This document shows, piece by piece, positions 4,976 through 48,179 of a stretch of DNA of 64,000 nt. Both the position numbers and the translations under genes were made by a program. Positions within the stretch are counted from its first letter, which is position 1. Each line of letters begins with the position of its first letter. The DNA is from Leucoraja ocellata (taxonomy: Eukaryota). The notes under the pieces were generated by a model. It searched no databases. It was not told the origin of the DNA and saw nothing but the letters and a program-made list of their open reading frames with translations. The stretch lies in contig JAWMAR010000034.1 in assembly GCA_036785375.1 (NCBI GenBank), positions 10,602,001-10,666,000 on the forward strand. Reading direction: 5' to 3'.

Positions 4976-5616
4976 TTGAGCTGAGATATAGACTGAAATA
5001 TTCCCATGCAGTTTTTGATATGTCGTTATTTGAGTGGCGAATGAGGCTGGAAACCGGAGATTCAGCTAAAAGTGAATATTCTAGTCATCTGTCAGGTGGA
5101 ATTTATGTAGAAGCATACATTTAAGTTGTTGCAATATGATTCATTGATTTGTTCAGAATTTGCAGAAGGAATGGTCGGGTTGAGTTTGGTGGCAATGGGC
5201 TTAAATTGCTCAATGCATTAAATAATGACTAATTAGTTTTCAATTTTGGTCAATGGACATTTCTGGCTATGTGTAAGAGCTAAAACGTAGTCTAGCCCGG
5301 ATTAGTGTAGGTTTAAGTGTAAAAGGCACCTAATATTGATAAACTTGTAATTTGTGCCTTTAGTGCTCTCTACCTGATGGCAGAATCTCGTGAGGAACAG
5401 TGGCCCTCTCCTACCTTGTCAAAGTTATCTGACTATCAATGACATTCTGTTTAGAAAAGGAAAGTTGGAGGAGTAGGCTTTTTTTTTAGAGTGAATAGCA
5501 AAAATAACCTTGGTGCTTAATCTCTTGATCCCTTTTTGTCTGTTTCCCCCAAATGATGCAGCTCTCTGACGAATCTACTATATGGACAAATAAAATAATT
5601 CATCACCAACAAGCTT

Positions 5617-5914
5617 GGTCTGAATATGGGTCTTGACCCAAAACGTCACCTATTTCTTCTTTAAGAGGGAGTTAGATGTGGCCCTTGTGGCTAAAGGGAT
5701 CAGGGGGTATGGAGAGAAGGCAGGTACGGGATACTGAGTTGGATGATCAGCCATGATCATATTGAATGGCGGTGCAGGCTCGAAGGGCCGAATGGCCTAC
5801 TCCTGCATCTAATTTCTATGTTTCTATGTTTCTCTCCAGAGATGCTGCTTGACCCGCTGAGTTACTCCAGCTCTTTGTCTTGTGTAAACCAGTAACTGCA
5901 GTTTCTTCTTACAC
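5617..5914 (+). mobile_element. Penelope-like pLTR repeat split by a CR1/HER1 3' end (5661-5830)
   Basis: GGTCTGAATATGGGTCTTGACCCAAAACGTCACC, then a CR1 tail ending (TTTCTATG)2, then CTCCAGAGATGCTGCTTGACCCGCTGAGTTACTCCAGC. Confidence 0.75.
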
Positions 5915-6683
5915 GGTTTGGGAATAAACTAATTTGCATATATCCCAATACAGAACTAACAACAGGAGTTCAAACCTAACCTATTGGGAGGAGAAAAGCT
6001 ATACAGTAGCTTACACGAAGAGCCAGTAAAGGAGTTCTGCATTTTAAAAGGTATTATGGGATTTTACTTGGAGAAAGTGTACTTAGTCACAACTTATTAC
6101 TCTTCAGTTATATATCAGCAGCAGATGCATAGTGGACCAGATCTCCTAATAGCTGATTGTCAGCCATTTGTTGTAATGAACCGGACAGGAAACATAATTT
6201 ACAATGCACTTGGATGACGTTCCAAGAACTCCTAATGCTCTTGGTCTTAGAGGAAGTACCGATGCTGCTGTGAATCTGCCTCGTCATTTTATAAAAGAAC
6301 TCTCCTTCCTCTACATAGAGATAAGTGCAGGCAACATGGCTATCAAGGAAGTCACCTGATTTGTGACCAAGTTCATTAAATTTTGCATATCAAATTGAAT
6401 AATCACTTTGCATTTTGTTTTTAATGTTTGTACAAATACTCGTAAAGAATGGTCCGTCTTATTAGTACTGCTCAATTTAGTTGTTCTGCTCTACATTTTG
6501 TACACTATTTCTCTCCTTTGCTGAAGTCCACAAAGTGCAATTCTGATACGTCACTACTGGAGGATTAATTGTGCCCACCAAATCGTATGTACTGCCTTGC
6601 ACAAAGTACAGTAAGGCTGACACTGGCACAGCTGGTAACGCTGTTGCCTCAGTGTTGGAGACCCGGTACAATCTTAACCTTGG

Positions 6684-8216
6684 GTATAGTATAGTATATC
6701 TTTATTGTCATTTTCCTGAGTACTCACATTCCCAGAGGAAACAAAAAAACGTTGCTCAACCAGTGTCCATTCAGTGTGCAGTTAAAAATAAATAGAAATA
6801 AAAATACATATATCATGAACAAATTAAACACTCTACTCTCTACTAAACATCAACAGGCGTTCCGATCGGCAGCGGCTCTGCTGCAGTGTGTCCAGGTTGG
6901 TGGTTGGTGCGCGATACTTTGGCAGGGGGCAAAGTCCGTTTATCAGTCTTATAGCCTGCGGGAAGAAGCTGAGGAACATCCTGCTGGTTTTGCAGCTAAT
7001 GCTCCTGTACCTCTTCCCAGATGGCAGGATGGGGAATATGTGATGCGATGGGTGGTAGGGGTCTTTGATGATGGAGATGGCTCTGCTGATACATCTCTTC
7101 CTGTATATGTCCAGCAGGAAAGGGAGTGGAGCACCAATAATCCTGCTGGCGGTCTTCACAATCCTGTCCAGTTGGTGCCGTTCGTACGCCTTGCAGCTCC
7201 CGAACCAGGAAGTGATGCCGTAGGTTAATGTGCTCTCGATTGTCCCCCTATAAAAAGTTTGTAGTGGGGAGACCTGCTTTCCGTAGTCTTCGGAGAGGGT
7301 GTAGTCGCTGCTGGGCTCTCTTGACCAGAGCTGTGGTGTTGGTCGTGGACGTCAGGTCATCTGACAGGTGTAGTCCTAGGAACTTCACGCTGCTGACCCT
7401 TTCCACATCAGCTCCATCTTTTATGTGCAGAGGTGTTGTTTTCCCACCCTCCTGAAGTCAACCACCATCTCCTTAGTTTTTCCCACGTTGAGAATGAGGT
7501 TGTGGGATTTGCACCATCCTGTGAGCAACTCCACCTCTATCCTGTACGCCAACTCATCATTGTCACTGATGAGACCCACCACTGTTGTGTCATCAGCGAA
7601 CTTGTTGAAGAAGTTGTTGTTGAGTCTAGCAGTACAGTCGTGTGTAAGCAGACTAAACAGCAGGGGGCTTAGGACACAGCCTTGGGGCGAGCCAGTGCTC
7701 ACGGCTATGGTTTTTGATGTCCTACTGCCCACCCTGATTGTCTGCTGCCGTTGCGATAGAAAGTTCTGGACCCAGTTACATGTGCCAGCATCAACCCCCA
7801 ATAGCTCCAACTTCTCCACCAGCTGCTGCGGAATGATTGTGTTAAAAGCAGAGCTGAAGTCTATGAAGAGGATCCTGGCATAAGTATTTTTCCGATCGAG
7901 GTGTGACAGTACGAGGTTCTGTGTTGTTGAGACTGCGTCCTCTGTGGATCGGTTGGCTCTGTAGGCGAACTGCAGTGGGTCTAGGTCGGCAGGTAGACTA
8001 TTTTTGATATGCTGCATAACCAGTCGCTCAAAACACTTCATTACTATGGGTGTTAGAGCCACTGGTCGAAAGTCATTATGACAGGCTGGGTTTGGTTTCT
8101 TCGGGACAGGGACGATGGTGGCACTCTTAAGACAGTTGGGCACTACTGCCTGGCTGAGTGAGATGTTAAAAATGTCTGTGAAGACATCTTTCAGTTGCTC
8201 GGCGCACTCTTAAAAC
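6684..8216 (-). mobile_element. Rex1/Babar non-LTR retrotransposon, 5'-truncated and frameshifted
   Basis: ORF 7421-8143 has RT motifs ([30 protein letters not shown]); ORF 6833-7159 is the C-terminal part; AATAAA and (TATAC)n tail at the 6684 end. Confidence 0.92.
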
Positions 8217-8479
8217 GCATTCTGTGTGGAGTTTGTACATTCTCCCTTTGACCATGTGGGTTTCCTCATGATGCTCCCATATCCCATGATTTCCTCCCAT
8301 ATCCCAAAGAGGTGTAGATTTGTAGGTTAATTGGCCTCTAATTTGTACCTTTAGTGCTTTCTACCTCTGCCCGTCGGAAACCAGCACCACTGCGTCGCTA
8401 ATGTTTTCAAAGATAACAATGAAAAATAATAATAAAATTGCCTTTAGCGTGTATGCGAAAGTGGGATAATATAGAACTA

Positions 8480-8600
8480 AAGATAGACACAAAAAGCTGG
8501 AGTAACTCAGCGGGATAGGCAGCATCTCTGGAAAGAAGGAATGGGTGAGGTTTAGAGTCGACACCCTCCTTCAGACTGGTTAGGAATAAGGGAAATGAGG
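8480..8600 (-). mobile_element. Penelope-like pLTR repeat
   Basis: AGACACAAAAAGCTGGAGTAACTCAGCGGGATAGGCAGCATCTCTGG...CCTTCAGAC. Confidence 0.75.
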
Positions 8601-8992
8601 GATAACTAGTATGAACAGATTGGCGTGGATTTTCTTGGCTGAAAGGCCCGTTTCCGTAATGTTTCTCTAAATTTGAAAGCATAATTTCAAAAGTTTAAAA
8701 TTCACCAGGTGGATAAACAAACACAAGGCGGTAATTACTTAATGAGATTAGGTGGTGGCAGTAAATTCCATTGCAGATGCTTGTAGCAATTTTTTTATTT
8801 TTTGTCAAAAGGACAGTGACTCTGGCAATGCTGTTCACATAATACAAAATCCTGCAGTACCATTCTGTAAAAGTACAGCTGGGAAGAAAATGTTCTAAAG
8901 GTTATAATCAGAGTCGTCTTTGTTAATGGTCTTTGCCAACTTGAGTGTTTGGTTTTATCATCCTTTTCATATGAACACCGGAACCCCACATG

Positions 8993-9806
8993 GATGTGTT
9001 CTAGTTCCCCTACTATATTCCCAATACACCCAAATTTAGCTCTAACTTCATCTTACAAGATTGTAGATGACACTGTGGTGAGCCAGATCACAAACAATGA
9101 TGAGATGGAGTAGAGAACTTAGTAACATGGTTCAAGGCAGTAACCTCTCCCTCAGTATCAACAAGACGAGGAAGCTAGTGGTGCCGAAATAGAAATGGCT
9201 GAGAGCTTCTAGATGGTAAATATTACCAACTGTATGTCATGGATCAACCACCATGAAGTGACAGCCAAGAAGGCATACCAATACCTTTACTTACTCGGGA
9301 GAATGAGGTAATTAGGCACATCTCCAATAACTCTTACAAACCTCTACAGATGAACCATAGAAAGCATACTGTTGGGTTGCATTACCGCTTGGTTTAGCAA
9401 CAGCTCTGCCCAAGACCACAGAAAATTGCAGAGTTGCGGATATAGCCCAGTCCATCGCACAGACCACACTTCCCACCATTGACTCCATCTACTCCTTCAT
9501 GCTGCCTCTGGAAAGTAGCCAACATCATCAGAGACTTGCCCCACCCAAGCATGGTCCTTCCATAAACGTCCGTAAACTGTCCAATTCGCCTCTATCCCAT
9601 CGCGGACATTGGATTTTGTCTCTGCAACTGCTGCGTAATAATGCTGAGAACTATTTTCTGCACTCGGTATCTTTCCCATTGCTCTTCACGTCATACTTCA
9701 GTTTGACTTGATTGTATTTATCTATAGAATTATCTGATTTGATTGGATAGCCTGCAAAGCAAAGCTTTTCACTGTACCTTGGTACACGTGACATTAATAA
9801 ACCTAA
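8993..9806 (+). mobile_element. Rex1/Babar LINE 3' fragment, degraded
   Basis: GGATGTGTTCT (GCVL), GTAGATGACAC (xDDT) and ACCATAGAAAGCATACT remnants; tail TTTTCACTGTACCTTGGTACACGTGACATTAATAAA. Confidence 0.8.
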
Positions 9807-10829: not shown

Positions 10830-12275
10830 TAGTGTCAGTTGCAAACTTACTAATTGTGCCTTATACATTCTCATCCAAATTGTTGCTATAAACCACAAAA
10901 ATAAATGGGCCTAGCACCAATTCCTGAGGCATTCATGAGTCACAGGCCTCCATTCTGAACAAACCACGTTGCATCACCACCCTCTGCTTCCTTCCATTGA
11001 GCTAATTCTGTGTCCTGTCACAGACCTCCAGTCTGAAAAAACAACCTTCCACCACCACCCTTTGCTTCCTTCCATTAAGCAAATTTTGTAACGGGTCAAG
11101 TCAAGAGAGTTTATTATCATGTGTCCCAGATAGGATAATGAAATTCTTGCTATATATATATATATATATATACATATACACACATAAATAAACAGATAAA
11201 GTGCAATAGGCTGTTATAGTTCAGAGTTTGAAGTTGTGTCTAATAGTCTGATGGCTGTGGGAAAGAAGCTGTTCCTGAACCTGGATGTTGCAGATTTCAG
11301 GCTCCTGAACTTTCTACCTGATGGCAGCGGAGAGATGAGTGTGTGGCCAGGATGGTGTGGGTCCTTGATGATGCTGGCAGCCTTTTTGAGGCAGCCACTG
11401 CAATAGATACCCTCGATGGGAGGTCAGAGCCGATGATGGACTGGACAGTGCTTACAATGTTTTACAGCCTTTTCCGCTCCTGGACGCTCAAGTTGCCGAA
11501 TCAAGCCGTGATGCAACCGGTCAGCATTCTCTGTACTGTGCAACTGTAGAAGTTCGAGAGAGTCCTCCTTGACATACCGACTCTCCGTAATCTTCTCAGG
11601 AAGTAGAGGTGCTGATGTGCTTTCTTTATACTTGCATCAGTGTTCTGGGACCAGGAGAGGTCTTCGGAAATATGCAAGCCCAGGAATTTAAAGTTGTTGA
11701 CCCTTTCCACCATGATATAAACGGGACTGTGGGTCCCCATCCTACCCCTTCCGAAGTCCACAATCAGTTCCTTGGTTTTGCTGGTGTTGAGAGCCAGGTT
11801 ATTGTGCTGGCACCATTTGGTCAATCGGTCGATCTCACTTCTATACTCTGACTTGTACCCATCAGTGATACGTATCACAACAGTGGTGTCGTCGGCGAAC
11901 TTGATGATGGAGTTCGCACTATGTCCGGCTACGCAGCCATGAGTATAGAGTGAGTACAGCAGGGGGCTGAGCACGCAGCCTTGAGGTGCTCCCGTGCTGA
12001 TTGTTATCGAGAATGACACATTTCCACCAATGCGGACAGACTGTGGTCTGTGAATGAGGAAGTCGAGGATCCAATTGCAGAGGGATGCGCAGAGACCCAG
12101 ATCTAAGAGCTTGCTAACCAGCTTGGAGGGGATGATGGTTAGCTGTCCCTGGATCCCATGCAATCATGCCGTCCAGAGCAGCCTATCACGTGGAGCCTAA
12201 TCAAAGGCCTTGCTGAAGTCCATATAGAAAACATCTAAGGCCTTTCCCTCGTCATTTTTCCCCATTACTTCAAAA
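10830..12275 (-). mobile_element. CR1 RT fragment interrupted by Rex1 (11095-12139)
   Basis: CR1 sequence (TCATCCAAAT...CCTAGCACC...GTCACAGGCCTCCA) on the left continues as AGCTGTCCCTGGATCCCATG...AAAGGCCTTGCTGAAGTCCATATAG on the right. Confidence 0.7.
11095..12139 (-). mobile_element. Rex1/Babar non-LTR retrotransposon, 5'-truncated
   Basis: ORF 11501-12163: [41 protein letters not shown]; (CTTGA)n tail; (TA)n tract at 11151-11171. Confidence 0.92.
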
Positions 12276-12599: not shown

Positions 12600-12890
12600 A
12601 AAAAAATTCTGGAGTAATTTAGCTGGTCAGGCAGCATCTCAGGAGGACATGGATAGGTGATGTTCTGGGTCAACTCTGCTGAAGTGGGCGAGAGATGTTT
12701 CGGATGTGGGTCGGAAGGGGCTGGACAAGTGAGGACAAAATGTAAATTAGTTTTGAGATTAGGTCGTTGGGGAAGGAGCAGGCAGCAACAATGCATCTGC
12801 CAGGGCAGTTCTGTCTGGATTTTGAGAAGGTAGTAGGAACCGTCAGTACTGGATAGGGGAACTATAAGATTGGAGGCTGTAGAAGGGAGG
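12600..12890 (-). mobile_element. Penelope-like element remnant: RT fragment + pLTR
   Basis: Minus strand translates with frameshifts to LPSTASNLIVP..SYYLLKIQ / NCPGRCIVAACSFPNDLISK / LSSLVQPLPTHIRN, resembling the PLE RT motif FYxLPKIHK...RPIVS, directly followed by the pLTR repeat. Confidence 0.7.
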
Positions 12891-14570: not shown

Positions 14571-14736
14571 TTTAAATCACTTCCTAATGTTCCTTTGGTT
14601 GATGTAAATCCTGATTACTACTCAGTAAAATCTCATAAGTATCAGCAGCTCACACTGATGCTTACGGAATTTAACTCAGTAGTAATCAGGATCTGCATCA
14701 AGCAGAGACCAAAGGAACATTAGGAAGTGATTTAAA
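14571..14736. repeat. 166-bp imperfect palindrome (foldback/MITE-like)
   Basis: Outer 29 bp are perfectly inverted (TTTAAATCACTTCCTAATGTTCCTTTGGT / ACCAAAGGAACATTAGGAAGTGATTTAAA); inner arms pair imperfectly around a loop of about 9 nt. Confidence 0.9.
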
Positions 14737-15319: not shown

Positions 15320-16315
15320 TGGTTTATTAATGTCATGTGCGCCAAGATAGGGGGCAAAATCTTATTTCCTATCCAGGTTAATCATAGCATACATGAGTGC
15401 GTCAGGTTGTGCAAAAGTGAAAAGAGTGCAGAATATCATGTTACAACAACATAGAAAATGCAGATATATTTTTTAAAAAGTGCAAGGGCCACAGTGAGGT
15501 AGATTGGACGATCAAGGCTTCATTCATATCGTATGAGAAATCCTCTCAAGAATTTGATACCAGCGGGGAAGAAGCAGTTCTGGATTCTGATGGCATGTGC
15601 TTTCCAGGAAGGAAGAGAGAAATGACCAGGGTGTGAATGGTCCTTCATGATATTGGCTACTTTGTCGAGGCAGCGTGAAATACAGGTGAAGTTGATGGTG
15701 GGGAGTCTGGTTTGTGTGATGGACTGTGCTGCAATTTCTTGGGGTCTTTGCAGAGCAGTTGCCATATCACGTTGTGATGCGTCTAGACTATAAATCGCCT
15801 GTATGAATTGGTAAGAATTGGCTACATGCCGAATTTCCCTTGCCCTCTGAGGAAGGAGAAGCGTTGATATGCTTTCTTACTCTTTGATACTTTCAAGAGA
15901 GAGCTAGATAGGGCTCTTAAAGATAGCGGAGTCGGGGGATAATGGGAGAAGGCAGGAATGCGGTACTGATTGGGGATGATTAGCCATGATCACATTGAAT
16001 GATGGTGCTGGCTCGAAGGGCCGAATGGCCTACTACTGCATCTATTGTCTATTAGCCTCGGCATCAATGTGGTTGGACCAGGATGAATTGTTAGTGATAT
16101 TTACACCCAGGAACTGAAGCTTTAGACCATCTCCTCTTCAGCGCCATTGATTCAGACTGGGATCTGTACTGCACCCTGCTTCCGGAAGTCGACGACTAGC
16201 TTCTTTGTTTTGTTAACTTTGAGGGAGAGGTTGTTATATTGACAAGTTCTATATCTGCTTCCTGTATTTTGTCTTGTTGTATGAGATGCAGCCTACTATG
16301 GTAGTGTTATCTGTC
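15320..16315 (-). mobile_element. Rex1/Babar fragment with a CR1/HER1 3' end (+, about 15885-16052) inserted
   Basis: ORF 15520-15765 resembles the Rex1 C-terminus (IMKDHSHPGH); TTTATT tail at about 15323; internal CR1 tail GGCTCGAAGGGCCGAATGGCCTAC. Confidence 0.75.
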
Positions 16316-17987: not shown

Positions 17988-18100
17988 CTGGGGAACGGCT
18001 GGAGAATGGGGTTAGGAGGGAGAGATAGTTCAGCCATGATTGAATGGCGGAGCAGACTTGATGGGCCAACTGGCCTAATTCTGCTCCTATCATTTTTGAC
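17988..18100 (+). mobile_element. CR1/HER1 3' end
   Basis: GGAGAATGGGGTTAGGAGGGAGAGATAGTTCAGCCATGATTGAATGGCGG...CTAATTCTGCTCCTAT. Confidence 0.8.
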
Positions 18101-18271
18101 CTTGGCTGCTTACTTCTGATTTTGGGGACATTTACAACTTGTGTTTACGCTGTATTTACAGCACTGGTGTGTGTAATTAGTACTGCACTGGTTGTGAACA
18201 AAATTATTTACATTGATTAGATTACAATGGTTTTTTACTATTTCTAATTTAAAATTATCTTTAATTTATAG

Positions 18272-20925
18272 TTGAATCTCCTCAAAGGAAGCTTCGGGGA
18301 CGACAACGGACATTTTCTTCGCAAAGCTCGGATGTATTATCAGATTCATCCTCTGCACTGTCACCTCCAAACAAGGTTGAGTCGAAGCCTGTTGATAAAG
18401 AAAAGAAGCAAGAATTAAACACCAGTGAGAGGAAGAGGGGTCGGCCTCCAGTGTTGAGCAATCCAAAGCTTCACGTTGCACAAGATAAGAAGGAAACAAC
18501 AAATGGGAAAACAGAGAAACAAAAAAATGAAAAAGAAAAGAAAGAGAAGAAGAAACCTGCATTATTGCAGCAGGTGACAAAAATAAAGAAACTGAGAGTA
18601 GTTAAACTGTCACCTTTGCAGTCCAAATTGAAGAAAGCTAAACTACAGATTAATAGCAATGGGGGAAAGATTGAACGGAAGAGAGGGAGGCCACCATCTT
18701 CGGAGCGTTTGAAGACTGTTCCAAAACTCCTTGTTCCAACACAAACTAAGAAACAAAAGAGGCTATGCAAGGAGAAAGATGGAACACCAACACAAAAGTC
18801 GCCAGTGACAAAAGAGATGAAGTCTTCTGTCAGACAGAGGCCCCGCAGGATAACCAAGCCAGTCAGAGTTGTTCCTGTCACTAAAAGGACTGATGCAGCT
18901 ATTGCAAAACAGCTCTTACAGAGAGCCAAAAAAGGAGCCCAGAAACGCATGGCTTCACCTCAACTGAAAAATATTCGTCAGTTTATCATGCCAGTCATCA
19001 GTGCCATTTCTTCAAGGATAATTAAGACTCCAAAAAGATTTATTGAAGATGACAGCTATGTACCTCCTGTCAAAGCTCCACGCCTAGAGTCAACTCCAAC
19101 TAGTCGGTTCAGCTCAATATCTTGTGGGTCTAGTGAGAAGTCCAGTGCTGTTTCACAGCATTCATCACAAATGTCTTCTGATTCTTCGAGATCAAGCAGC
19201 CCCAGTGTTACCTCCACTGATTCACAGGTATCTGATGAATTGCAGACTCTTCCTCAAGTACCAACTCAGTCTCCAGATTTGCACAGTTGTTTAAATGCCT
19301 CACAGTCCAGTGAACCAGGAGGGGCAGATAAAAAAGGTCACCGATTTTCAATGCCAGAAAGAAGCAATACTACAAGCAAGAAATTGCCAACTTCTTCCCC
19401 ACAGCCAACATCCTCATCTCCACCACCACCATTGCTTTCTCCTCCTCCTCCCCTACAGCAAACCTCAAACGTATCTGATCATTCTCCCTGGCTGATGCCT
19501 CCAACCATACCATTCATTTCACCACCAACAGGCTTGCCAGAAAAACGGAAGTCTATCTTAAGAGAACCAACATTCAAATGGACATCTCTGAAAAACCTGA
19601 GGCCAGAATCGCATCAGTACTTCTCCTCAGCAAAGTACGCCAAAGAAGGACTTATCCGCAAGCCAATATTTGATAACTTCATAACATCACCACTAACGCC
19701 TGAAGATGTTGGTTTGCCAACCAGGTTTCATTCATCTCCCAGCACACCACCACCACCTCGACTTTTCTCCTCGCTTCATCCTGCCTCCAGGTTTGATACT
19801 CACAAAAGAAGTCCACTGCTCCGCGCTCCGCGATTCACTCCTAGTGAAGCCCACTCCAGGATTTTTGAGTCTGTTACTGTATCACCACGGAATCTGCTTC
19901 GATCTTCAGTTTCTTCCTCGGGTAAAGGGCATTCTTCTAAAAGGAAGAACAAAGAGTTGCATATTTCAAGCCGTATTGATCCAAAATCTCCATCACACTC
20001 CATGAGAACCAGAAGTGGGCGACTAATATCTGCTGATCTGTCACCTATCACTCCACAGACACCCGTAACGTCCTCATCTCCTGTAAGCTCCATAATAACT
20101 GGTGCCTTAACTCCCCCTCTTGGTAGTTTGGTGCAATCTGAAGGAACAGCAAAGGATAAAGATGGTAGAACAAAGTTATCATCTCGACAGACCAGCACTC
20201 CAGGGGACAGCTTCTCTGCAGACTCGTCCAGTCCAACATCTCCATTGTATCCAACAGTCACATCCAGTGCTCAAAAGGACAAAGGCAAAAGCAAGGATAG
20301 GCAAATTGAAGGCATGGTCAAAGAGAGAGATTCTGAGAAAGGGTCAGAGAAAGACAGAGAGCGAGATAAAGAAAAGGAAAATAAACGCGAATCAAGGAAA
20401 GAAAAGAAATTGCAAAGTAAGGGGACAGAGCCTCAGAGTCCTCCACCAATGTTCCTTTACCCAGTTGCAGTGGCTGAAGACCAAACTGTTGGAGAGGATG
20501 TGGTTGCCTCATCATCAGTGAAAAAGGTTTCAGGGAGAGCCAAAAGGTCGAATTCAACTGATAAAGGTGCAGGGAGTTTGGGAGATGGGTCTTCCTCAAC
20601 GCTTTCTGATGGGAAGAATAAGAACTCAAAGAAAGGCAGATTGGGAACTGAAGAGGTGGTGCCCGTAACTGGTGGGTCAGAGAGCAGTACAGCTACATCC
20701 ATAGGCAACAAAGACAAGCCTCCTCGCCATCCTTCTATAACTTCTATGCTCTCATCTGGCACTCTTAAGCATTCTGCACCTGCTATCAGTAGTATGTTAG
20801 CACAAGCAGACAAAATGCCAACAACTGATAAGCGAGTGGCAAACCTATTGAGAAAAGCTAAAGCACAGCTTTGCAAGATTGAAAAGAACAAATCATTAAA
20901 AATTGCTAACCCAACAAAATCTCAG
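18272..20925 (+). CDS. KMT2A: KMT2A exon 3 (AT-hooks, SNL1, Ser/Pro-rich region)
   Basis: TTATAG acceptor, CAG|GTATGT donor; contains most of the 844-aa ORF with MLL1 motifs RKRGRPP x2, KNIRQFIMPV, KSILREPTF, SSAKYAKEGLIRKPIFDNF, RAPRFTPSEAHSRIFESV, LRKAKAQLCKIEK; 2654 nt. Confidence 0.97.
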
Positions 20926-20935
20926 GTATGTACAA

Positions 20936-21250
20936 CAAGGAACTGCAGTTGCTGGTTTACAAAAAAAGACAATGTGCTGGAGTAACTCAGCAGGTCAGGT
21001 AGCATCTCTGGAGGACATAGGCAATGTTTTGCGTCTGGACCTTCAATCTGATTGGTTGGGACGAACAAGAAACATGGAGGAAAGGGGAGATAGGACAAAG
21101 CCTGGCACCTTCTCCGCGATCAATCTGAAGAGGGGGCCCCCACCCAAAATGTCACCTATCCATTTTCTCCAGAGTTGCTGCCTGATCTGATGAGTTATTC
21201 CAGCATTTAGTGCCAATCTTTGGTATAAGCCAGCATCGGCAGGTCCTTTT
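20936..21250. mobile_element. Inverted pair of Penelope-like pLTR repeats
   Basis: Minus arm AAGGAACTGCAGTTGCTGG...TGCTGGAGTAACTCAGCAGGTCAGG; plus arm TCTGAAGAGGGGG...CCTGATCTGATGAGTTATTCCAGCA. Confidence 0.75.
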
Positions 21251-22019
21251 TATTATATTAACTAGCTGTTTATGTTGTGTAAAGTATTGTCTCTACCCCA
21301 AGGCCTTCCAAAACTCTCTACTCACTGAGATCTTGACAGCCCAGCATTTGGAAAGAGATGGAGCGCACTTTGCTTGAGTAACATTTTCCCATGGTTAGTA
21401 AGCGGTTATTCACTCAGAGCATGAAGGCAGTTCTTGCTAGATAGCACCATCTTATATTCTAACAAGGCACTTAGGTCCATGTTAGTACTCAGGAGAAATT
21501 CCATTCTCCCTTCCTTATTTCCCTCTGCCCTGCAATCAAGCATTGGATTCTACCTTGCCTTGAAGGACTTAGCCCAATTGGAATTATATTTCAATCAAAT
21601 TGATGAAGGGGATTATAGGGAAAAGCTATTGTTTGAAGTGTAATCCATTCTATTCCATTTGTTGTTTTTATAGTGTTTAGGAATGCTGGTATTCAAGCAA
21701 TGTCTTGGAAGTAAATTTTGCAGCATCCTATTTTCAACCAAATCTGGTTAAATGTTGCGTGAATGTGCAGCAACACAGAGTGCCTCGCGGGGTTAGTGAG
21801 GTGTTGCTTTATATTTTGCAGCTATAAGTAGGCTTTGTCCTTGGCCGAACACTGCCTGGTCCATTTTTGGATTGTATGGTTGTGGAGATTCTGATCAGAT
21901 GGTCAGATGAAGATTAACGAGCACAGGATCTGATTTGCTGGGCTGTTCTTGTGTACTCCCTCCTTTGGCAGCTTGAATTTGTGAGCGTGTTTTTTTCCTC
22001 CTTGTTCCTCCTCTCCCGA

Positions 22020-25394: not shown

Positions 25395-26601
25395 CAGTGC
25401 CCTCCATAATGTTTGGGTCTTTACCCATCGTTTATTTATTTGCCTCTGTACTCCACAATTTGTGATTTGTAATAGAAAAAATTCACATGTGGTTAAAGTG
25501 CACTGTCAGATTTTATTAAAGGCCATTTTTATACATTTTGGTTTAACCATGTAGAAATTACAGCTGTGTTTATACATAGTCCCCCCCATTGCAGGGCACC
25601 ATAATGTTTGGGACACATGGCTTCACAGGTGTTTGTAATTTCTCAGGTGTGTTTAAACGCCTCCTTAATGCAGGTATAAGAGAACTCAGCATCCAGTATT
25701 TCCTCCAGTCTTTCCATCACCTTTTGGAAGCTTTTATTGCTGTTTATCAACATGAGGACCAAAGTTGTGCCAATGAAAGTCAAATAAGCCATTATGAGAC
25801 TGAAAAAGAAGAATAAAACTGTTAGAGACTCCAGCCAAACCTTAGGCATACCAAAATGAACTGTTTGGAACATCATTAGGAAGAAAGAGAGCACTGGTGA
25901 GCTTACTGGTGGACAGATGAGACGAAGATTAACTTATATCAGAGTGATGGCAGGAGCAAAGTATGCAGAAGAAGGAACTGCCCAAAGCATACCACCTCAT
26001 CTGTGAAACACGGTGGTGGGAGTGTTATGGCCGGGGCATGTACGGCTGCTGAAGGTACTGGCTCACTTATCTTCATTGATGTTACAACTGCTGATGGTAG
26101 TAGCATAATGAATTCTGAAGTGTATAGACACATCTTATCTGCTCAAGTTCAAACAAATGCCTCAAAACTCATTAGCCGGTTGTTCATTCTATATCAAGAC
26201 AATGATGCCTAACATACTGCTAAAGCAACAAAGGAGTTTTTCAAAGCTAAAAAATGGTCAATTCCTGAGTGGCAAAGTCAATCACCCGATCTGAACCCAA
26301 TTGAGCATGCCTTTTGTATGCTGAAGAGAAAACTGAAGGGGACTAGCCCCCAAAACAAGCATAAGCTGAAGGTGGCTGCAATACAGGCCTGGCAGAGCAT
26401 CACCAGAGAAGACACCCAGCAACTGGTGATGTTCATGAATTGCAGACTTCAAGCAGTCATTGCATGCAAAGGATATGCAACAAAATACTAAACATGACTA
26501 CTTTCATTTATATTACATTGCTGTGTCCCAAACATTATGGTGCCCTGAAATAAGGGGACTATGTATAAACACTGCCGTAATTTCTAGTGACCGGAAATGT
26601 A
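25395..26601 (+). mobile_element. Tc1/mariner DD34E DNA transposon (IR/DR type), defective, right TIR truncated
   Basis: TA|CAGTGCCCTCCATAATGTTTGGG left end; inner DR at 25591-25617 and its inverse at 26522-26546; transposase remnant 25752-26491 with WTDETK, KHGGGSVM, QDND-34aa-SPDLNPIE, internal stops and a deletion. Confidence 0.93.
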
Positions 26602-27030: not shown

Positions 27031-27232
27031 AAAAAAAAAAAAAATTTTCTATAGCACATTTTTAGTCAACTTGCATTGACCCCAAAGTGCTTCACATAAT
27101 TACATTACATTTTACACACAGGCAAAGGTTGGTGAAGTATCTTGCCCCATGGACACAACGACAGTATGCACTCCAAGCGGGATTCGAACCGGCTACCTTC
27201 CGGTTGCCAGCCGAACACTTAGCCCATTGAGT
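27031..27232 (-). mobile_element. Young tRNA-derived SINE
   Basis: Minus strand has A-box-like TGGGCTAAGTG, B box GGTTCGAATCC and CORE-like GTGTCCATGGGGCAAGATACTTCACC; CpGs retained. Confidence 0.8.
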
Positions 27233-27665
27233 AGAATTAGACCATTCCGCCTGTTGTCTACTCCGCCATTCAATCATGGCAGATCTATCTCTCCCTCCTA
27301 ACCCCATTCTCCTACTTTCTCCCCATAACCTCTTGACACCCATACTAATCAAGAATATATCTATCTCTGCCTTAAATATCCACTGACGACCTCCACAGCC
27401 TTCTGTGGCAAAGAATTCCACAGATTCACCACCCTCTGACTAAAGAAATGTCTCCTCATCTCCTTCCTAAAAGAACGTCCTTTAAATCTCCAGTCCTAGA
27501 CACTCCCACTAGTGGAAACATCCTCTCCACATCCACTCTATCCAAGCCTTTCACTATTCTGTATGTTTTAATGAGGTCCCCCCTCATTTTTCCAAACTCT
27601 AGTGAGTACAGGCCCAGTGCCGAAAACGCTCATCATTTGTTGACCCACTCATTCCTGTAATCATG
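27233..27665 (-). mobile_element. CR1/HER1 3' fragment
   Basis: Reverse complement of the copy at 58165-58592. Confidence 0.85.
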
Positions 27666-29350
27666 GTAGGACTATATACACACACCTATCCGATAAATAT
27701 TTCACATGGTTTACAAATAACTTTTAAAGTGTGGAGCCTTGCTGCATAGGGATATGTGGTTTCTAATTTGTTCAGAATATGTGTTCTTAAACAGTAAAGG
27801 AGATGAATTATTGGTTTTGTGGTTTAGTAGAGAGATGAATTTGTGGTAGAAAGCACAAGATTCTTTAAATAGAACCACAGTATCTTTGATGCCCAACTGA
27901 ACATGCTTGGCATGGACCCTCGTTAATAATGAATTCCCTATTTACTTAGTGAAGGTGTTGGATGATGAATTTAAACATCAGTTGGCAGTAAATTATTTGT
28001 GTAGAATGCAGGAAACTTCCAAATTTTATTTATTTATTCCTCAACCTGCTCAGGAAAACTGTCGCACGGAAACATTTTGTTTCGCAACACTGATTAGGTT
28101 GGGATAAAGTCAACAATGGGTTCTTTCCTTGATTATTGAACTTGGGTGAAAATGGCACATGGATGTTTGGATTTGGTCAGATCTTGGATTTTATTATGCC
28201 CTTTTCTGGCTGAATGGCATCCCAGCTTTATCTTTGCCAGTTGTATGGACACTTGAATGAGTTATTTAGAAGTTGCTGGTGCCCATGGTTCCCCCCCGCC
28301 CCGCCAGTAAAAGTTGATGTTAGGCAAAACGAGGACTGATAACATGAATGGTATGTTCAGAATAAAGTGTTGTTCTGGGATAGTTTTCTTCAGCCAAATA
28401 GAGAACAGGTTTTACTGGATGTGATATTGAATGTTGGCTGGATTAATTAATGACATCGTATGAAGGTGTCCCATGGTAACAATGATGTCAATATGATGGA
28501 ATGTCACTTTGAGCGAAAGAAGAATGTGTCCATGTAAGGGCGATTATGAGGCCATTAGCACTAGCTAAAGTGAACTAGGGGATAGATTAGTCGAGAAACC
28601 GTGACAGATATTTAAGTCGCAGAGCAGATGCAGTCCAGTGAGAGAGAGAATATTCAATAATGGACCTCCGATCTGTAATTAACTAAAAAGTTAAATACTG
28701 AGCCTAAAGAAAAAGCAAATCATTGTGCAAAGATTGATGGCAGGTGTGAGGAGTGGATAAAATGTAAATAACTGTACAGAATGATTAAGGTTAATAAAGA
28801 AGGAATTAAATGTGAGAAAGCAAATCTGAGGGATTAATGTGAAAATGATATTAAATTGGGCATGAATCTTCATCGCCTCGGGCATTGAGATTAAACGACA
28901 GCGAGTCATGTTGTAGTTGTATAATACTTTGGTTCAGCCACATTTGGAGTTTTCTGTGCAGTTCTAGTCATTACATCAGAGACAGGATGCGGAAGCTTTG
29001 GAGAAGGCAAAGAGGAAGTTTACCACGACAATGCTGCATTTGAGTGTTTTATAGAAGAGATTTGACAAACTTGGGATTTTTTTCTGTGCTGCGTTGGAAG
29101 CTGAGGAACACGCTGATAGAATTATGTAATATGAGAAGCATAGATCGGGCAGAACCCTTTCCCAGGATGGAAACATTGAACAGGAGAGGGCATAGGTTTA
29201 ACGTGAGGGGGGGAGGAGGTGTTTTAAAGGAGATGTGAGAGGTAAGATATTCTTCACAGAGTGTGATAGGTGCCTGAAACATTCTTCCAGGGAAGGTGAT
29301 ATCGCAAGGAAAGTGGTACTCAGTAAATTTGTTGGATTGTGGACTTCATC

Positions 29351-29448
29351 CAGGGTCTGAAGAAGGGTCTCGACCCGAAACGTCACCTATTCCTTCTCTC
29401 CAGAGATGCTGCCGGTCCCACTGAGTTACTCCAGCTTTTTGTGTCTAT
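29351..29448 (+). mobile_element. Penelope-like pLTR repeat with intact hammerhead
   Basis: Flanked by a CTTCATC direct repeat (29344-29350 and 29449-29455). Confidence 0.8.
29353..29388 (+). ncRNA. Minimal type I hammerhead ribozyme motif in Penelope-like repeat
   Basis: GGGU CUGAAGA A GGGU-CUCG-ACCC GAAA CGUC ACCU: intact core, stem II, stem I and ACGU palindromic stem III. Confidence 0.7.
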
Positions 29449-30621
29449 CTTCATCTTAAAAGCATGATAGTTAATGTGTTTGTTCCACATTTTCAGGAAA
29501 AGTTCTGTTCGTTAGAAGATTGGTAAATGCAACTCTTTCATTCAAAAAGGGATGGAGATACAAAAATATATACCACAGGCTTGTCAGTTTATCATCTATC
29601 ATAGAGAACAAATTAGTAGCTAAAGTATTACTGCAGGGCACTTGGAAAAATTCAATATAATCTGGCAAAGTCGATGTGGTTTGTCCATTTTATTGGAGTT
29701 ATTTGAAGAAGTGCTGTAAAAAGGAAAGCTGGTGGATATGCTGCACTTGGATTTATGAACACATTTGATAAGGTGCTTTGAAGTTTATTTAAGAAAATAA
29801 AAATTTATGGTGTAAGTGGCAATGATTTGGTATGGATGGAAGATTGGCTGGCTAGCAGGAAACATACCAGGAATAAATGAGCTTTTTCTAATTGGGAAGT
29901 AATAAATGACGTGCTGCAAGTATTGGTACGTGGGCTTCAACTATTTACAATTTGTCTAAATGACATTGAAGGCACCAAAAATATCACAAAGTTTGATGCA
30001 GAAATATGTTGGAAGGTAAATAATGAAACGGGCAAAACTTGGGCAGGAACAAATAACAGTGTATCAGTGAAATAACGAGATTATTAAAATATTTTCTCTC
30101 AGATGGTCTTGAGCGGTTATAACTCTTCTGAAATCTTGGCGCTCATAGTAAGCACATCAGCCTTAAACATTTTGAATAGCAGAACAAGCTTAAGAGATCA
30201 AATGACCTGAACCTATTCTTAATTCTTGTATTTGTATGTATGCATGTGCCATCGCATTTACCTATAGACAGCAATCCATAGGCTAGAGATGTCTGTCTTG
30301 ATAGCATAGAATGATCAGATCAAAATAACTTAACTCCAGGCCCTTTTGAGCTTTCAGGTTTCCCAAATACACTTCTTGTGGGATCAGTGTATATTTATGT
30401 ATAACCCCTGACATGAAGTCATTTGATATGATTTGTAGTGTTACTGAGGTTTTAGGCAAACTCCATGTAAGTGGTCCTGTTGATTGTACACAGTCAGAAT
30501 TGAGACCAAGCTATAAAAGGTGTCGTGTCTGTAAATGTAAGTGAATGCCACAGCTCATTAACCTGGTCCCTTTTGTGCCATATCTATAAAACATCTCACT
30601 TTAAACTCTTTTTAAATGCAG

Positions 30622-36258: not shown

Positions 36259-38385
36259 AACTACTATAGCTCTATAATTGGATTTTGGCGTTGAGCCCCC
36301 GTTCATCAAGAGTCAGCATTAATGCAAACATATATTAGGGGTTAAATCACCTGATTCGCAATTAAATGATTTGCCCTCCCTATCATAAATAATTTTTCAT
36401 TGGCTTGTTTAATGTCCATTGAATTGAAATGGATTGAACTACATTTGATACAGATTCATGACAACCTAGATGCTTGGCCTTGGAAAGAAAATGTATAGGT
36501 TATTAATTAATGATAATTGGCCTAGTTTATTACTGTTAACACTGGATCGGTGAGTGCCAGTGTACTTAATTTGGGAGTTGCCTTGTTAGATTATCATACT
36601 CTTTCTACAGTTGAGTTATTCACTAAGTTTTGCTTGAGAGCACAGTACTCCGTTCAGGGTTATTGAGCATTTTTCTGTGGAACGCTATAATGTGCTCAAT
36701 GTAAGAGTGATTGGTTGTGGACGTGCTGGGTTTCCCCCATATGGGTCGGTACAAATTTGAATTTGGCCTCTGGATATTTGTTCTCTGAAACATCTCCATT
36801 GAAAGAAAATACAAAATACAATGGCAAGTAAATCTGTTTTCACAAATTTTGACAAACACTTGCTTTGGTTGATACATACATAACTATATTGAGTCCATTT
36901 TTGGTTTCCATCCACCACAGGATAGGATGTAAGGTGAGAGCAAAAGCATATGGAAAAAGTTACCTTGGCTACTGGTGAAAGACATGCATGGTTATTCTTG
37001 AGGCATTATAATAATTCCAAGCCTTCCGTTCATATTACTGGATACAATGTAGTGCGCACCTTGAACCTGATTTCATAAAATGCTATTGCATCCTCGTAGC
37101 TCCTCGATTCTGATTCCTAACCTATTGATTCTCAGATTGAGGTATCCACACCTTTGCACCCTTGCGAGGAATCTCCTTTTAAGTGGGCGAAACTGCAATA
37201 GCAGATTAATAATGTCAGGGTGATCTATATTTGCGGGGTTAAGGCAAGGTTTGGAGAGACAAGTCTCATTGGTGGTTTTCAGAACATTTGGGAGGGTATG
37301 GACATGGATGGTATTGGAGAGAAATCGTTTAGATTGGAGAGTTGGAAGAACAAGAGACTACAGTTGCTGAACAAAAATAGACCACTGGTTTATTTGGTGG
37401 TAAAGCAGCATATGTGAAGGTAAAGGGAAAGCCAATGTTTCAGGGGTTAACCCTGCATCAGGGTTGAAATGTTGGCTATACCTTTACCTCCACAGATGCT
37501 GCGCGATCTACTGAGTTTCTCTGCCAGTTTGCTGATTGGGGAGTTTTTGGGGCAAATGATGATGTTTAGGTAGGTTTCCTCCATGATGGTTAACATTTAA
37601 ATGATTAACGTACAAAACATGATGGTAATGGTATACAGCTAACAAATTTGTAACAGTGCATAGTATAAAGAATCTTTGGCACCTTGTTCTACCCGAAGGC
37701 ACTAAAGTGATCGGCAGTAGAAGTGTGTTGTGCTTGAGGTAGCTCTCAATGGACTACCTGTTTGACATAGCCTCTCTCCCCAGTATGTATTCTGAAATGA
37801 TTCACAAATTTTCTAGCTGTTGAAATTTTTACTAAAAGGGTATACATGCAGTCTGTTTGGTTTGAAATTGGAGGTTTCCATTTTGTTTTACTCAGTTTTG
37901 AAACATAATTCCCTACACCAATTGCGTCAGTTCCATTCCACCAATGCTCCCCTGGATGAAACGGTATTTTGTAACACTTAGTCATGCAAATGATAAGCTT
38001 TCAATTCCTCATGGATGCTGATTGAGCTGATCTCAGCTGGGACAGCAACTGAACCTCTGCAGATGGTCTCAACTCCTCTCGACTAGGATAGGAAACATTA
38101 ATTGGTCGGGGGAGGGGTTTGAAATACCACATTCCAGTGACATTCCTTTTATTTATTGTACAGAAAGTAGTATGCATAGAGATCCGTTGTATTTGAACTT
38201 GCTTACAGAAATGTTATGCTTTGAAAATGTTGACCCCCCCCCCCCCCCCCCAAGTAAAGGCTTTCATTTAGAAATATTTTGATTTTTTTAAGTAGTGTTA
38301 CCTACACAGGCACTGCTGTTCTATTTGGCAACAGATACAGCCTTACACAAAACAATTGTATTGATTTCATGCTTCTTATTTTTAG

Positions 38386-41047: not shown

Positions 41048-41328
41048 GAGACCTGGAGGAAGAAACTGCAGATGCTGGTTTACACTGAAGATAGACATAA
41101 AATGTTGGAGTAACTCAGTGGGACAGGCAGCATCTCTGGAGAGAAGGAATGGGTGATGTTTAGGGTCGAGACCCTTCTTCAGACTGAAAGTCACAGTAAA
41201 GGGAAACGAGAGTCCCTTTCCCGTGACTATCGGTCTGAAGAAGGGTCTCGACCCGAAACGTCACCCTTTCCTTCTTTCTAGAGATGCTCCCTGTCCCACT
41301 GAGTTAGTCTAGCATTTTGTATCTATCT
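41048..41328. mobile_element. Inverted pair of Penelope-like pLTR repeats (long hairpin)
   Basis: Arms at about 41091-41207 and 41215-41328 are reverse-complementary; ACATTATA direct repeat at 41040-41047 and 41329-41336. Confidence 0.85.
41232..41265 (+). ncRNA. Minimal type I hammerhead ribozyme motif in Penelope-like repeat
   Basis: GGU CUGAAGA A GGGU-CUCG-ACCC GAAA CGUC ACC; core intact. Confidence 0.68.
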
Positions 41329-42160
41329 ACATTATAATACTACAGAAATTTGGAATGTGGATCTTGAAGTGGATGTTACAGTTTTATTTAAAAAAACATA
41401 GTGAGAATAAATCAACTCTAACTCAAACTCAGACTTATTAGGATATTCTGCCTTCTCAAACATGCCAACAACAAGAAAAATCATCAGTTTCTTTCAGTAT
41501 CAGTTATTTCTGTCAAAGAACATATTATAAAAAGGTACGTATATTCTCCCATTTTAAGTTAAGCTGTTATCTTCACCCTTCTACATGTTCCTGTTTGTGA
41601 ACATTAGCTCTGGTAAATGACCTGTCTTCATTCCATGCTGTTGCTACTGAGGGACAAGGCCAAGAGATACCAAAGACTGAGGCTCAGCTGAAATCAGGAG
41701 ATATTGTGTGTAATCGGACAGATGACTCACCTGTTACATGAACTGTCATAACATCTGTTTGAAGAGAATGTGTCTTATCTTGATTGACCATTGCATGAAT
41801 GCACTATCTATTTAGTATCAATATGTTATTCAGATAAAGATCACCCATTTAAATTTCCTTTAGATTATTTTTTTGCTTGGCTAGTTTTTGCAAGAGCTCT
41901 GGTGCTTCCCCATACAATAGTCAGTTTGGAATTTACATTTCAAACCTCAGCTTGTCTTTGTTTTTACAAGCTGATGAACTGTAACCAGCAGTTGTTTTAA
42001 TTATTTCTCACTGTGTTAATGAGGATGGAGGTAGGTTGCAAGTGGAACTGAATAATGCTGAATTTTCCCAAGGGAGAGAGGGGTTCTGAATAATTTGTTT
42101 CTTGTGCTGAATCATGTGAAAAGTAAAACATCAATTCTTAAAACATTTATTTTAACACAG

Positions 42161-43294: not shown

Positions 43295-43615
43295 AACAAG
43301 AAACTGGGGGTGCTGATTTACTGAAAAAGACACAAAGTGCTGGAGTAACTGCAGAACATGGGTAGATGACATTTCAGGCTGGGACATTCCCAACCTGAAA
43401 CGTCACTTGCACTACTACTACTGTATGTACGTATATATATTTATTGCTCATTATTCTATGTTTGCTCTTCTGAGTGAGATGCTAACTGCATTTCATTGTC
43501 TCTGTACTGTACACTGCACAATGACAATAAAGATTGAATCTGACCTATCCTTATTCTCCAGAGAATCCTCCTTAAGAGACCTGCAGGGTTACTCCAGCAT
43601 TTTGTGTCTTTTACA
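43295..43615. mobile_element. Inverted pLTR pair with a Rex1-type tail (+, about 43408-43543) inserted
   Basis: ACACAAAGTGCTGGAGTAACT...CCTGAAACGTCAC [insert ending AATAAAGATTGAATCTGA] CCTATCC...TTACTCCAGCATTTTGTGTC. Confidence 0.7.
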
Positions 43616-44844: not shown

Positions 44845-45190
44845 GTATTTGGAAGAGCAGACTTTGTATTCTGGATGAAAACTGACAGCCCATTTAAAAA
44901 GATACAATTGCTGGTTGATGTGTTTTTGCTTTGTTTAGATTTAATTTGTTTTGAGCTCTCAGTGCGAAGTATAAATGCAGAATGCTTTCTATCACAGTAG
45001 CTTATCAAGTTCACGTTTAGTTTTTCATGTAACTATTTCTGGCCAAATGTTTTTGGAATCCCTAATTATTTTTTCTAGCCTTAATGCGACACTACTGTTG
45101 CTTGTACTTTCCTCCCATTTCCACGACCCCCCCCCCCCCCCCCGATTTTCTTCCACAACCGAACAAGTATTTGTGCCCCAATAATATGGC

Positions 45191-45392
45191 GCAAAGTGCT
45201 AGAGTAATTCAGCAGGATAGACAGCATCTCTGGAGAGCATGGACAGGTGATGTTTTGGGTCGGGGTCCTCCTTCAGACTCTTCACCTGAAAGGTTACCTG
45301 TTCATGTTCTCCAGAGATGCTGCCCAACCCACTGAGTATTCCAGCACTTTGTGTCCTTTTGTGTAAACCAACATCTGTAGTTTCTTGTTTCT
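45191..45392. mobile_element. Inverted pair of Penelope-like pLTR repeats
   Basis: CAAAGTGCTAGAGTAATTCAGC...CAGCATCTCTGGAG versus CTCCAGAGATGCTG...TATTCCAGCACTTTG. Confidence 0.75.
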
Positions 45393-45963
45393 GTCCCAAT
45401 AATTTGGATAGTTAATTAAAATCATTCGTATAGGAACAGAGAGAATCGTGCATCATTAAGTTAAGCTTCAGTTACTCATTGTTAAGCTGCCCATCCATGT
45501 AAGAAATTGCCTACCGTAAGAAGATGCATACTGTATAATTGGCAGATGGCACTTTGTTTAGTTACACATTTGGAGAGATGATAGTGATCAGCTTTGAACT
45601 TGTTTCAAATGTAATCTATTTTATCCAGCTTGCTCTCTTCTGTAGGAGGGCTCTACTTTTCCACTTCCTCTCCTGCCCACGAACACTGAATCTAAAACAA
45701 AACCAATTTGAAGGAGTGGCATTAGTTTGATTGTCTAGCTGATTCCACATTTATGATTGGCAGGAATTTGCTCAATTCAGATGTTTTGTTTAGTGCAACA
45801 TGTATCTTCATTAGTGCTTTGCACCCTTTACTCTGCACAGTTTTCTCCATTCATAAATATTCTTCATATTGATGATAAAATTACACAGAATCTGTTCTAT
45901 TAAAATCAGAAAAATGTCTTGCTATGCATGACAATTTTTACCATTGATTTTATCTTCACCCAG

Positions 45964-47857: not shown

Positions 47858-48071
47858 TGGCTCGGATTTGTTCTGTTCATACCTTTCATTCATTTGTTCT
47901 TTGCACCTTTACATACCTCTAGTTTCCCTCTCCCCTGACTCTCAGTCTGAAGAAGGGACTCAACCTAAAATGTCACCTACTGCTTTTCTCCAGAGATGCT
48001 GCCTGACATGCTGAGTTATTCCAGCATTTGTGTTTATCTTTGATGTAAACCAGCATCTGCAGATCCTTCCT
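47858..48071 (+). mobile_element. Penelope-like pLTR repeat (longer copy, degenerate hammerhead)
   Basis: CTCTCAGTCTGAAGAAGGGACTCAACCTAAAATGTCACC...CCAGAGATGCTGCCTGAC...AAACCAGCATCTGCAG. Confidence 0.75.
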
Positions 48072-48179
48072 CCAGAGTTGATAATGCGATTTGAAGTTTT
48101 CACAACATAGAAATTGAGATGGTCTGTAAGTGATGTGAAAGATTTTCCAGCTGAATTCCATTTGCTGTCTTTCTACCAG

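Follow-up and report, generated by a model that had tools for sequence, protein, structure and literature searches.

The three intact hammerhead cores found in introns of the KMT2A gene of Leucoraja ocellata are very probably passengers, carried by 3′-end fragments of a Penelope-like element (PLE) whose weak or protein-aided hammerhead would serve the element's own RNA, the intronic copies themselves being inert. The window analysed here is a stretch of 64,000 nucleotides (contig JAWMAR010000034.1, hereafter C34, positions 10,602,001 to 10,666,000, forward strand), and positions are those of the window unless a contig or locus is named.

A hammerhead-bearing repeat family in the introns of KMT2A

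The whole window lies inside KMT2A, which is encoded on the + strand, with exon 2 onward at 14377-63893. The long ORF at 18265-20985 corresponds to exon 3 and matches a KMT2A protein from a skate at 97% identity; tblastn searches placed exon 1 5 kb upstream and exon 8 near 32833. An initial annotation, made from the sequence of the window, had described a dispersed intronic repeat at 13 loci or more, some of whose copies carry minimal hammerhead ribozymes. Our analysis confirms this family: with a profile HMM derived from 8 copies in the window, we obtained 29 matches at E ≤ 1 in the 64-kb window (17 on the + strand and 12 on the − strand), including all 13 named loci, and none in the reversed window. 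Further copies were found at 2799, 23425, 37400-37531, 43538 and 59008-59104. The features discussed below are the following:

3636-3775 (+): decayed copy with tail, KMT2A intron 1
5614-5914 (+): decayed copy in two parts, separated by another repeat that was inserted later (about 5663-5826)
8476-8582 (−): profile match, decayed copy with some native upstream UTR
12601-12679 (−): profile match, decayed older copy
20936-21255: decayed inverted pair, 20936-21057 (−) and 21117-21255 (+), beginning ~10 nt past the exon 3 donor
29351-29459 (+): short PLE copy (hammerhead plus tail to about the first 3′ end), carrying the 29353 hammerhead
29353-29388 (+): intact minimal type I hammerhead of subfamily A, helix I GGGU/ACCU with a non-native 5′ strand, KMT2A intron 5
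41048-41204 (−): PLE copy in inverted orientation, its tail complete and its core decayed by changes at G12 and G16.2; it forms the left arm of a 125-bp inverted repeat
41213-41337 (+): PLE copy with intact core 41235, KMT2A intron 11, right arm of the 125-bp inverted repeat
43295-43609 (− then +): decayed copies, KMT2A intron 13
45190-45393: inverted pair of decayed copies, KMT2A intron 14
47858-48075 (+): decayed copy keeping a native pyrimidine-rich UTR that ends in CAG, plus tail, KMT2A intron 15
54046-54143 (+): subfamily B (youngest) copy with intact core 54052, KMT2A intron 19
56710-56801 (−): profile match, decayed copy
59008-59104: short inverted pair of tail fragments, absent from the initial list
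61792-61898 (+): profile match, decayed copy

A strict core pattern matched at three positions and no others (29357, 41235 and 54052), each time on the + strand, with no match on the − strand of the window; exon mapping places these cores in sense orientation in KMT2A introns 5, 11 and 19, as had been proposed. The initial description also holds for the predicted cleavage positions (C17 at 29384, 41262 and 54079), for stem II (GGGU/ACCC, with GGGU/GCCC in the 54052 copy), for the additional A that follows A9 and for the ACGU that lacks a loop, with which monomers indeed cannot close stem III. Closure of helix I by the four base pairs GGGU/ACCU stands for 29353 only, helix I amounting to 3 bp at 41235 and 2 bp (U.G, G-C) at 54052.

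The core residues C3-U4-G5-A6-N7-G8-A9, G12-A13-A14-A15.1 and U16.1-H17 are present in all three copies, and in 24 of the 96 near-consensus copies of an unselected 464-kb sample composed of the window, 200 kb of its flanks and 200 kb from 20 other places. Every subfamily consensus that has an intact core harbours the ACGU palindrome (15.2-16.2) without loop 3. All have the extra nucleotide after A9 and the 10.1-11.1 pair that closes helix II, which is G-C in the young families and A-U or G.U in the old one. An Rfam scan of the window returned no hammerhead family even at E ≤ 5, and 9 unrelated weak hits; the identification therefore rests on the motif together with its element context. On these grounds the repeat was rightly called a PLE fragment with a minimal type I hammerhead of the kind described in PMC4209133.

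The three copies with intact cores are flanked by TSD-like repeats of 7-11 nt, observed directly: CTTCATC at 29344 and 29449 for the copy at 29351-29459, ACATTATA at 41040 and 41329 for the one at 41213-41337, and the 11-nt TSD CTGCAGAAATT at 54031 and 54144 for the one at 54046-54143. The sequence just upstream of the first of these copies (29343-29352) partly mirrors its core. All window copies are dispersed or inverted, with none of the head-to-tail tandem hammerhead units that define non-LTR retrozymes.

Other elements populate the same introns. A 166-nt near-perfect inverted repeat (14571-14736), a MITE-like hairpin, begins about 110 nt after KMT2A exon 2 and gave rise to the top Rfam match, a miRNA, which we rejected as spurious. 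Fragments of non-LTR retrotransposon RT ORFs, which we take from their motifs to be L2/CR1-like, lie on the − strand in intron 1 (6833-8209 and 11501-12163), and a 103-aa frame at 25901-26212 (+) resembles a fragment of a Tc1-type transposase. A second dispersed family, resembling LINE 3′ ends, is present at 5741-5819, 15974-16052, 17997-18097, 27256-27583 and 58232-58592; the PLE copy at 5614-5914 was split by the insertion of one of its members. The head of a SINE may be represented by a tRNA-like stretch at 27169-27243 (−), and a 78-nt tandem duplication, 81% identical, occupies 10939-11094.

The parent element

The structure of the parent element can be read directly in longer copies. In loci L002, L004, L026 and L021, the repeat is immediately preceded by a GIY-YIG coding sequence followed by a pyrimidine-rich UTR. 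Searching the genome at the protein level yielded 150 scored matches out of 74,144 candidates, with open frames of up to 1,190 aa, and 20 loci picked among the scored matches for their long ORFs were retrieved. The full element consists of a partial copy (pyrimidine-rich UTR, hammerhead and tail), an ORF of ~1,160 aa encoding an RT, a CX4CxxC linker and a GIY-YIG domain, and then a second UTR, hammerhead and tail. The start codon is found ~160 nt after C3, and L121, L129 and L136 harbour a hammerhead at both ends of the ORF, i.e. in each pseudo-LTR (pLTR). Pfam RT scores are 26-28 bits, just below the cut-off; in L123 both RVT_1 (E = 8e-6) and GIY-YIG (E = 0.009) fall under it. The ORFs display the motifs ADKG, YIDD, CX4CxxC and LIYCxxCxxC..YIGE, with RFAEH in L123, and in three of three ORFs the linker between RT and endonuclease (EN) reads CNRKRCNTC or CGRRRCNTC, an instance of the CX2-5CxxC motif common to Neptune and Nematis.

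By its sequence features, the repeat is thus the pLTR 3′ end (hammerhead plus tail) of a Neptune-type PLE. The element has a single ORF with an RT and, at its C terminus, a GIY-YIG domain, partial tandems, inverted 5′ copies and a tail, and under the definitions of Craig et al. 2021 (PMC8557442) it classifies as an EN+ PLE of the Neptune or Nematis type. Among the 20 loci selected for long ORFs, identity is 97.5-99.3% for partial tandems and 99.6-100% for inverted 5′ copies; the element has evidently been active recently in this skate genome. Three exact subfamily B motifs on C1 (8664501, 8668486 and 8672471, − strand) are spaced 3,985 nt apart and probably represent a head-to-tail array of full-length elements, which would be the natural setting for a dimeric ribozyme.

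The ends of the dispersed copies were collected from the 464-kb sample. Their 3′ ends are bimodal, with 37 of the 96 near-consensus copies ending 90-99 nt and 24 ending 120-139 nt after C3, matching the PLE 'tail' of PMC11167929 and PMC8557442, which the former traces to two RT start sites. The 96 copies divide into 31 in inverted pairs, 11 that keep native UTR and 54 short ones, and 41 of the latter end within 8 nt of C3, a 5′ boundary at the ribozyme itself. Extrapolating from the Anolis Poseidon element, reverse transcription would start at one of two tail sites and would usually stop, or fold back into an inverted copy, at the 5′ edge of the hammerhead. Aborted copying of this kind would leave 100-135-nt fragments with target-site duplications throughout the genome, introns included, which would decay neutrally once inserted. 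The role of the hammerhead, present or past, would lie in the tandem RNA of the element itself, where it would probably act as a weak dimer dependent on the element's protein.

Abundance and subfamilies

The core pattern, in which helix I is not required, has 117,806 matches genome-wide, compared with 3 for the reversed pattern. Exact 36-mers of subfamily B number 14,620, and those of subfamily A 4,071 in the CAGU form and 346 in the GGGU form. Several single-copy genes were found twice (C34:8.03 and 8.20 Mb; C29:3.18 and 3.52 Mb; L154-L156). The assembly thus holds duplicated stretches, probably haplotypes, so these core counts are inflated, perhaps up to twofold. With 2.19 intact cores expected per 64 kb and a probability of 0.37 of finding at least three, the three cores in the window are unremarkable. 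Clustering by k-means separated subfamilies A and B from each other but did not separate the old family; in seven of eight clusters the consensus retains every catalytic residue, the eighth being disrupted by a junction.

Helix I, covariation and core decay

The initial annotation had taken the 4-bp GGGU/ACCU helix I at 29353 as its key support, and this helix turned out to be an accident of a junction. The native 5′ strand of helix I is CAGU, which forms U-A and G-C pairs in subfamily A, or U.G and G-C in subfamily B, followed by an A x C mismatch; in the family consensus, A2.3 (66 of 88 letters) faces C1.3 (95 of 98). The consensus helix is therefore just 2 bp long, and the absence of consensus stem I pairing, initially named as a finding that would speak against the ribozyme, is largely what we found. 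Of the 24 intact copies, 15 have a helix I of 2 bp, 6 have one of 0-1 bp, a single copy has 3 bp and two have 4 bp, so that the skate copies lie at the weak end of the lengths published so far (2-6 bp, mostly 3-5). Read by eye, 30 GGGU copies comprise 19 inversion junctions and 11 flank or partial-duplication junctions, never the native UTR; as a counter-example, one long copy, L021, has CAGGGU straight after native UTR. We rejected CAGGGU as the mark of a spliced or special active subfamily: it is found in only 2 of these 30, and what lies upstream is either unrelated or inverted sequence.

In the old, decayed family, helix I is AGUU/AACU, with at least 4 bp in 12 of 16 copies collected by a pattern that itself required 3. 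A GUU/AAC helix I has 28 matches, mostly in the old family (of 20 retrieved, 16 are of the old type and 4 of the young type). The native 3-bp GUC/GAC form with an intact core has a single match genome-wide, and one copy has CAGUC/GACUG. Between the old family and both young subfamilies, helix I shrank from 4 to 2 bp.

When the old and young families are compared, both partners of pairs 2.2-1.2 and 10.1-11.1 differ, in a selected set that makes this illustrative. In the covariation count, 87% of cells are paired and six of eight pairs show two-sided changes, a result reached in 0 of 500 shuffles; these figures come from 19 hand-picked copies, partly chosen by a pattern that demands pairing, and are likewise illustrative, being informative at 2.4-1.4 and 10.1-11.1, the pairs that the selecting pattern did not force. 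The covariation between old and young cores indicates that the fold was under selection in the history of the element. As a pattern among sequences, it shows selection acting on the mobile element rather than on the intronic copies. Core positions at CpG sites do decay (G12 is kept at 0.68 and G16.2 at 0.64), as would be expected for inserted copies without constraint. Core identity at non-CpG positions is 0.94, compared with 0.86 in the tail (p = 0.058), in pooled copies where subfamily differences are mixed with decay.

These data bear on whether the hammerhead of the young subfamilies is catalytically dead and kept as a structure or as an RT-binding site, a possibility that we consider doubtful and that is compatible with the fragments being inert passengers. 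Helix I dwindled from 4 bp to 2 weak bp precisely in the most expanded families, and hammerhead mutants of Anolis Poseidon left insertion in vitro unaffected (PMC11167929). Moreover, strands 1.1-1.4 and 11.4-11.1 mirror each other in subfamilies A (ACCC/ACCY) and B (GCCC/GCCU), making for a competing hairpin with the 5′ strand of stem II. However, the unchanged catalytic residues in seven of the eight cluster consensuses and the higher identity of the non-CpG core relative to the tail argue against loss of catalysis, as do the forms with a 2-bp helix I known from Culex, D. virilis and Oikopleura (PMC4209133, Fig. S3).

The short native helix I might also reflect a ribozyme switched by splicing. 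The pyrimidine tract with a CAG, ending inside the 5′ strand of helix I, would then be a real 3′ splice site, and splicing, by swapping this strand, would determine whether the element's hammerhead folds; we regard this as improbable. In all seven long copies inspected, which represent A, B, old C and L181, pyrimidines make up 65-82% of the 40 nt preceding the CAG that abuts helix I, and six of the seven lack any other AG in this stretch. The young families retain A2.3 despite its mismatch with C1.3, and an intron of D. virilis Penelope ends at helix I (PMC4209133). PLE UTRs are generally U-rich, however, and no GT..AG joint was present among the joints listed for related-species RNA reads on L121, where the candidate upstream donors, identified by eye, would not lengthen helix I. 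In addition, the UTR is kept in just 11 of the 96 dispersed copies and in none of the three intact copies of the window. Less probable still, and in our view very unlikely, is that the hammerhead is stored incomplete, with its 2-bp helix I, behind this 3′ splice site and activated by splicing, by the element's protein or by both. If true, copies that keep the acceptor or have by chance a longer helix I, such as that at 29353, could act as protein-triggered cut sites or exon traps, and tens of thousands of such candidate sites would exist in host pre-mRNAs genome-wide when the element is expressed.

Could the intronic copies cut KMT2A RNA?

The initial annotation had further proposed that introns 5, 11 or 19 could be cut through ACGU pairing between sense copies. 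We found no support for this idea, given the weak native helix I and the hairpin in which the core at 41235 is caught. The inverted repeat around 41080-41337 spans 125 bp, is 86% complementary and has an 8-nt gap; its predicted MFE is −196 kcal/mol over 308 nt, and it buries the 41235 copy by 58 kcal/mol. With 170/110 nt of flank, the fraction of hammerhead-compatible folds was estimated at 3e-5 for 29357, 1e-41 for 41235 and 2e-7 for 54052, by folding models that omit core tertiary contacts and proteins and are uncalibrated on a known active hammerhead; the older form with a 4-bp helix I also scored unfavourably in them. The three intact KMT2A cores are young copies that most likely do not cut the pre-mRNA to a meaningful extent.

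In our estimate, it is extremely unlikely that sense copies, whether from a single KMT2A pre-mRNA or from two RNA molecules, assemble into a double hammerhead and cut the introns. The cores are intact and in sense orientation, and a fourth intact sense core with some native UTR lies in KMT2A downstream of the window (L151:1948, C34 about 10667948, +). Helix I forms between partners, and 29357 with 41235, the best pairing modelled, could give 5 and 3 bp; some cleavage in vitro, though low, was reported for S. mansoni dimers (PMC4209133). Against this, the ACGU duplex contributes just −1.7 to −3.1 kcal/mol, and for all six pairings within the window the free monomers are favoured by 1.9-7.5 kcal/mol, as calculated without flanks or a positive control. 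The best partner, 41235, is the copy buried in the hairpin, the three sites are separated by 12-25 kb and 6-14 exons, and sense copies are tolerated in KMT2A and in UBE4A.

If the copies affect KMT2A RNA at all, they might do so through double-stranded RNA rather than catalysis, inverted pairs such as that at 41080-41337 forming long hairpins. We consider this unlikely, if less so than a splicing switch. The length, complementarity and predicted stability of the hairpin around 41235 fit this explanation, as does a second inverted pair (20936-21255) beginning ~10 nt after the exon 3 donor. Like inverted Alus, such long hairpins could be editing substrates and affect splicing or back-splicing; still, a hairpin need not have any effect. 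The pair at 20936-21255 could itself form a hairpin beside the exon 3 splice donor.

We then considered traces of cleavage in the genome and in RNA reads. The 5′ ends of 284 tail-anchored copies fall mostly at the edge of the ribozyme (94 at −8 to +2) or shortly after it (76 at +3 to +25), with 12 at +26 to +30, near the cleavage site, versus 31 at +31 to +49. No pile-up at the cleavage site is thus observed among these 284 copies, a weak test of cleavage, which suggests that uncleaved RNA is copied, as in PMC11167929. RNA reads of a related species deeply cover the motif (~5,900 reads at L121:2480 in run X24). Across L121:1500-4000, in four of 24 listed runs, with reads from many copies, there is no site where many molecules begin or end, in data of a type nearly blind to 5′-OH and cyclic-phosphate ends. 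The single-cell run X23 has a strand bias of ~4:1 in favour of the − strand, whose interpretation would require the library type and a control gene.

Depletion of intact cores from sense introns had been put forward as a further check, and we found none in the genes mapped around KMT2A. Three + strand genes harbour 13 sense and 7 antisense copies, of which 5 sense and 0 antisense copies are intact, indicating that intact sense copies are not depleted in these genes. IFT46 maps elsewhere on C34, outside the KMT2A neighbourhood. Over C34:10502001-10766000 (264 kb), intact cores are distributed 12+/2− and decayed ones 20+/27− (Fisher p = 0.006, post hoc); the lean of intact cores to the + strand has p = 0.065 without the window, and the distribution is 4+/6− in 200 kb of random places. 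All genes mapped in this 264-kb region are on the + strand. If anything, this lean counts against the intronic copies being inert.

Relation to known systems and significance

The minimal hammerheads of metazoan PLE pLTRs (Cervera & De la Pena 2014, PMC4209133) share with the skate motif the CUGANGA-H and GAAA-C-G-U-H strands, the G10.1-C11.1 pair and the loop-less palindrome. They likewise occur in both pLTRs and mostly as dispersed single truncated copies and inverted pairs. Helix II of the skate copies is short, at 4 bp, and their 2-bp helix I, closed by U-A or U.G, is weaker than the 2-bp G-C cases of that study, in which a dimer cleaved weakly. The skate count of ~1e5 cores, obtained in a duplicated assembly and without requiring helix I, exceeds the 4,000-9,000 given there for coelacanth and Xenopus. 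Cartilaginous fish are absent from Table S1 and Fig. S3 of PMC4209133.

The Poseidon element PAc of Anolis carolinensis (Frangieh et al. 2024, PMC11167929) has the same tandem pLTR-ORF-pLTR organization with a hammerhead next to where the ORF begins, two 3′ ends with a tail between them and, as reported in that article, no sign of cleaved templates. The skate element belongs to a different clade and has the CX2-5CxxC linker that is absent from Penelope/Poseidon; its ATG is ~160 nt after C3, whereas that of PAc is at stem II. Protein-assisted cleavage was demonstrated for PAc and would apply to the skate element by analogy. Neptune EN+ PLEs as described by Craig et al. 2021 (PMC8557442) have in common with it the C-terminal GIY-YIG domain, CCHH-type cysteines, the CX4CxxC linker and DKG, as well as partial tandems, inverted 5′ copies and a tail of 30-40 nt.

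Non-LTR retrozymes (PMC7229834; bioRxiv 10.64898/2026.07.22.740005) are also PLE-related short units with type I hammerheads, and the bioRxiv study describes them in its one chondrichthyan species. Unlike the skate copies, which are dispersed 5′-truncated ends of an autonomous element, retrozymes form head-to-tail arrays, in the cases of PMC7229834 with canonical hammerheads and circular RNA. The domesticated hammerheads of amniotes (RECK and others, PMC6155905) are likewise intronic, of type I and ultimately retroelement-like, but according to that source they are few and highly conserved, whereas those described here are 3 of about 1e5 motifs in neutral decay. Our search of the openly accessible literature returned no paper on this hammerhead in skates or sharks and, beyond D. 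virilis, none that describes a splice acceptor as a general feature of helix I in PLEs.

The finding says little about KMT2A, and would matter more if the acceptor at helix I were real or if host introns were cut. It extends the known PLE minimal hammerheads to a skate lineage, at very high copy number. The accumulation of 5′ ends at the edge of the ribozyme, and not at the cleavage site, provides genomic support for the uncleaved RNA template seen in vitro. A recently active vertebrate element of the Neptune type with dated subfamilies is well suited to the question of what role PLE hammerheads play in vivo.
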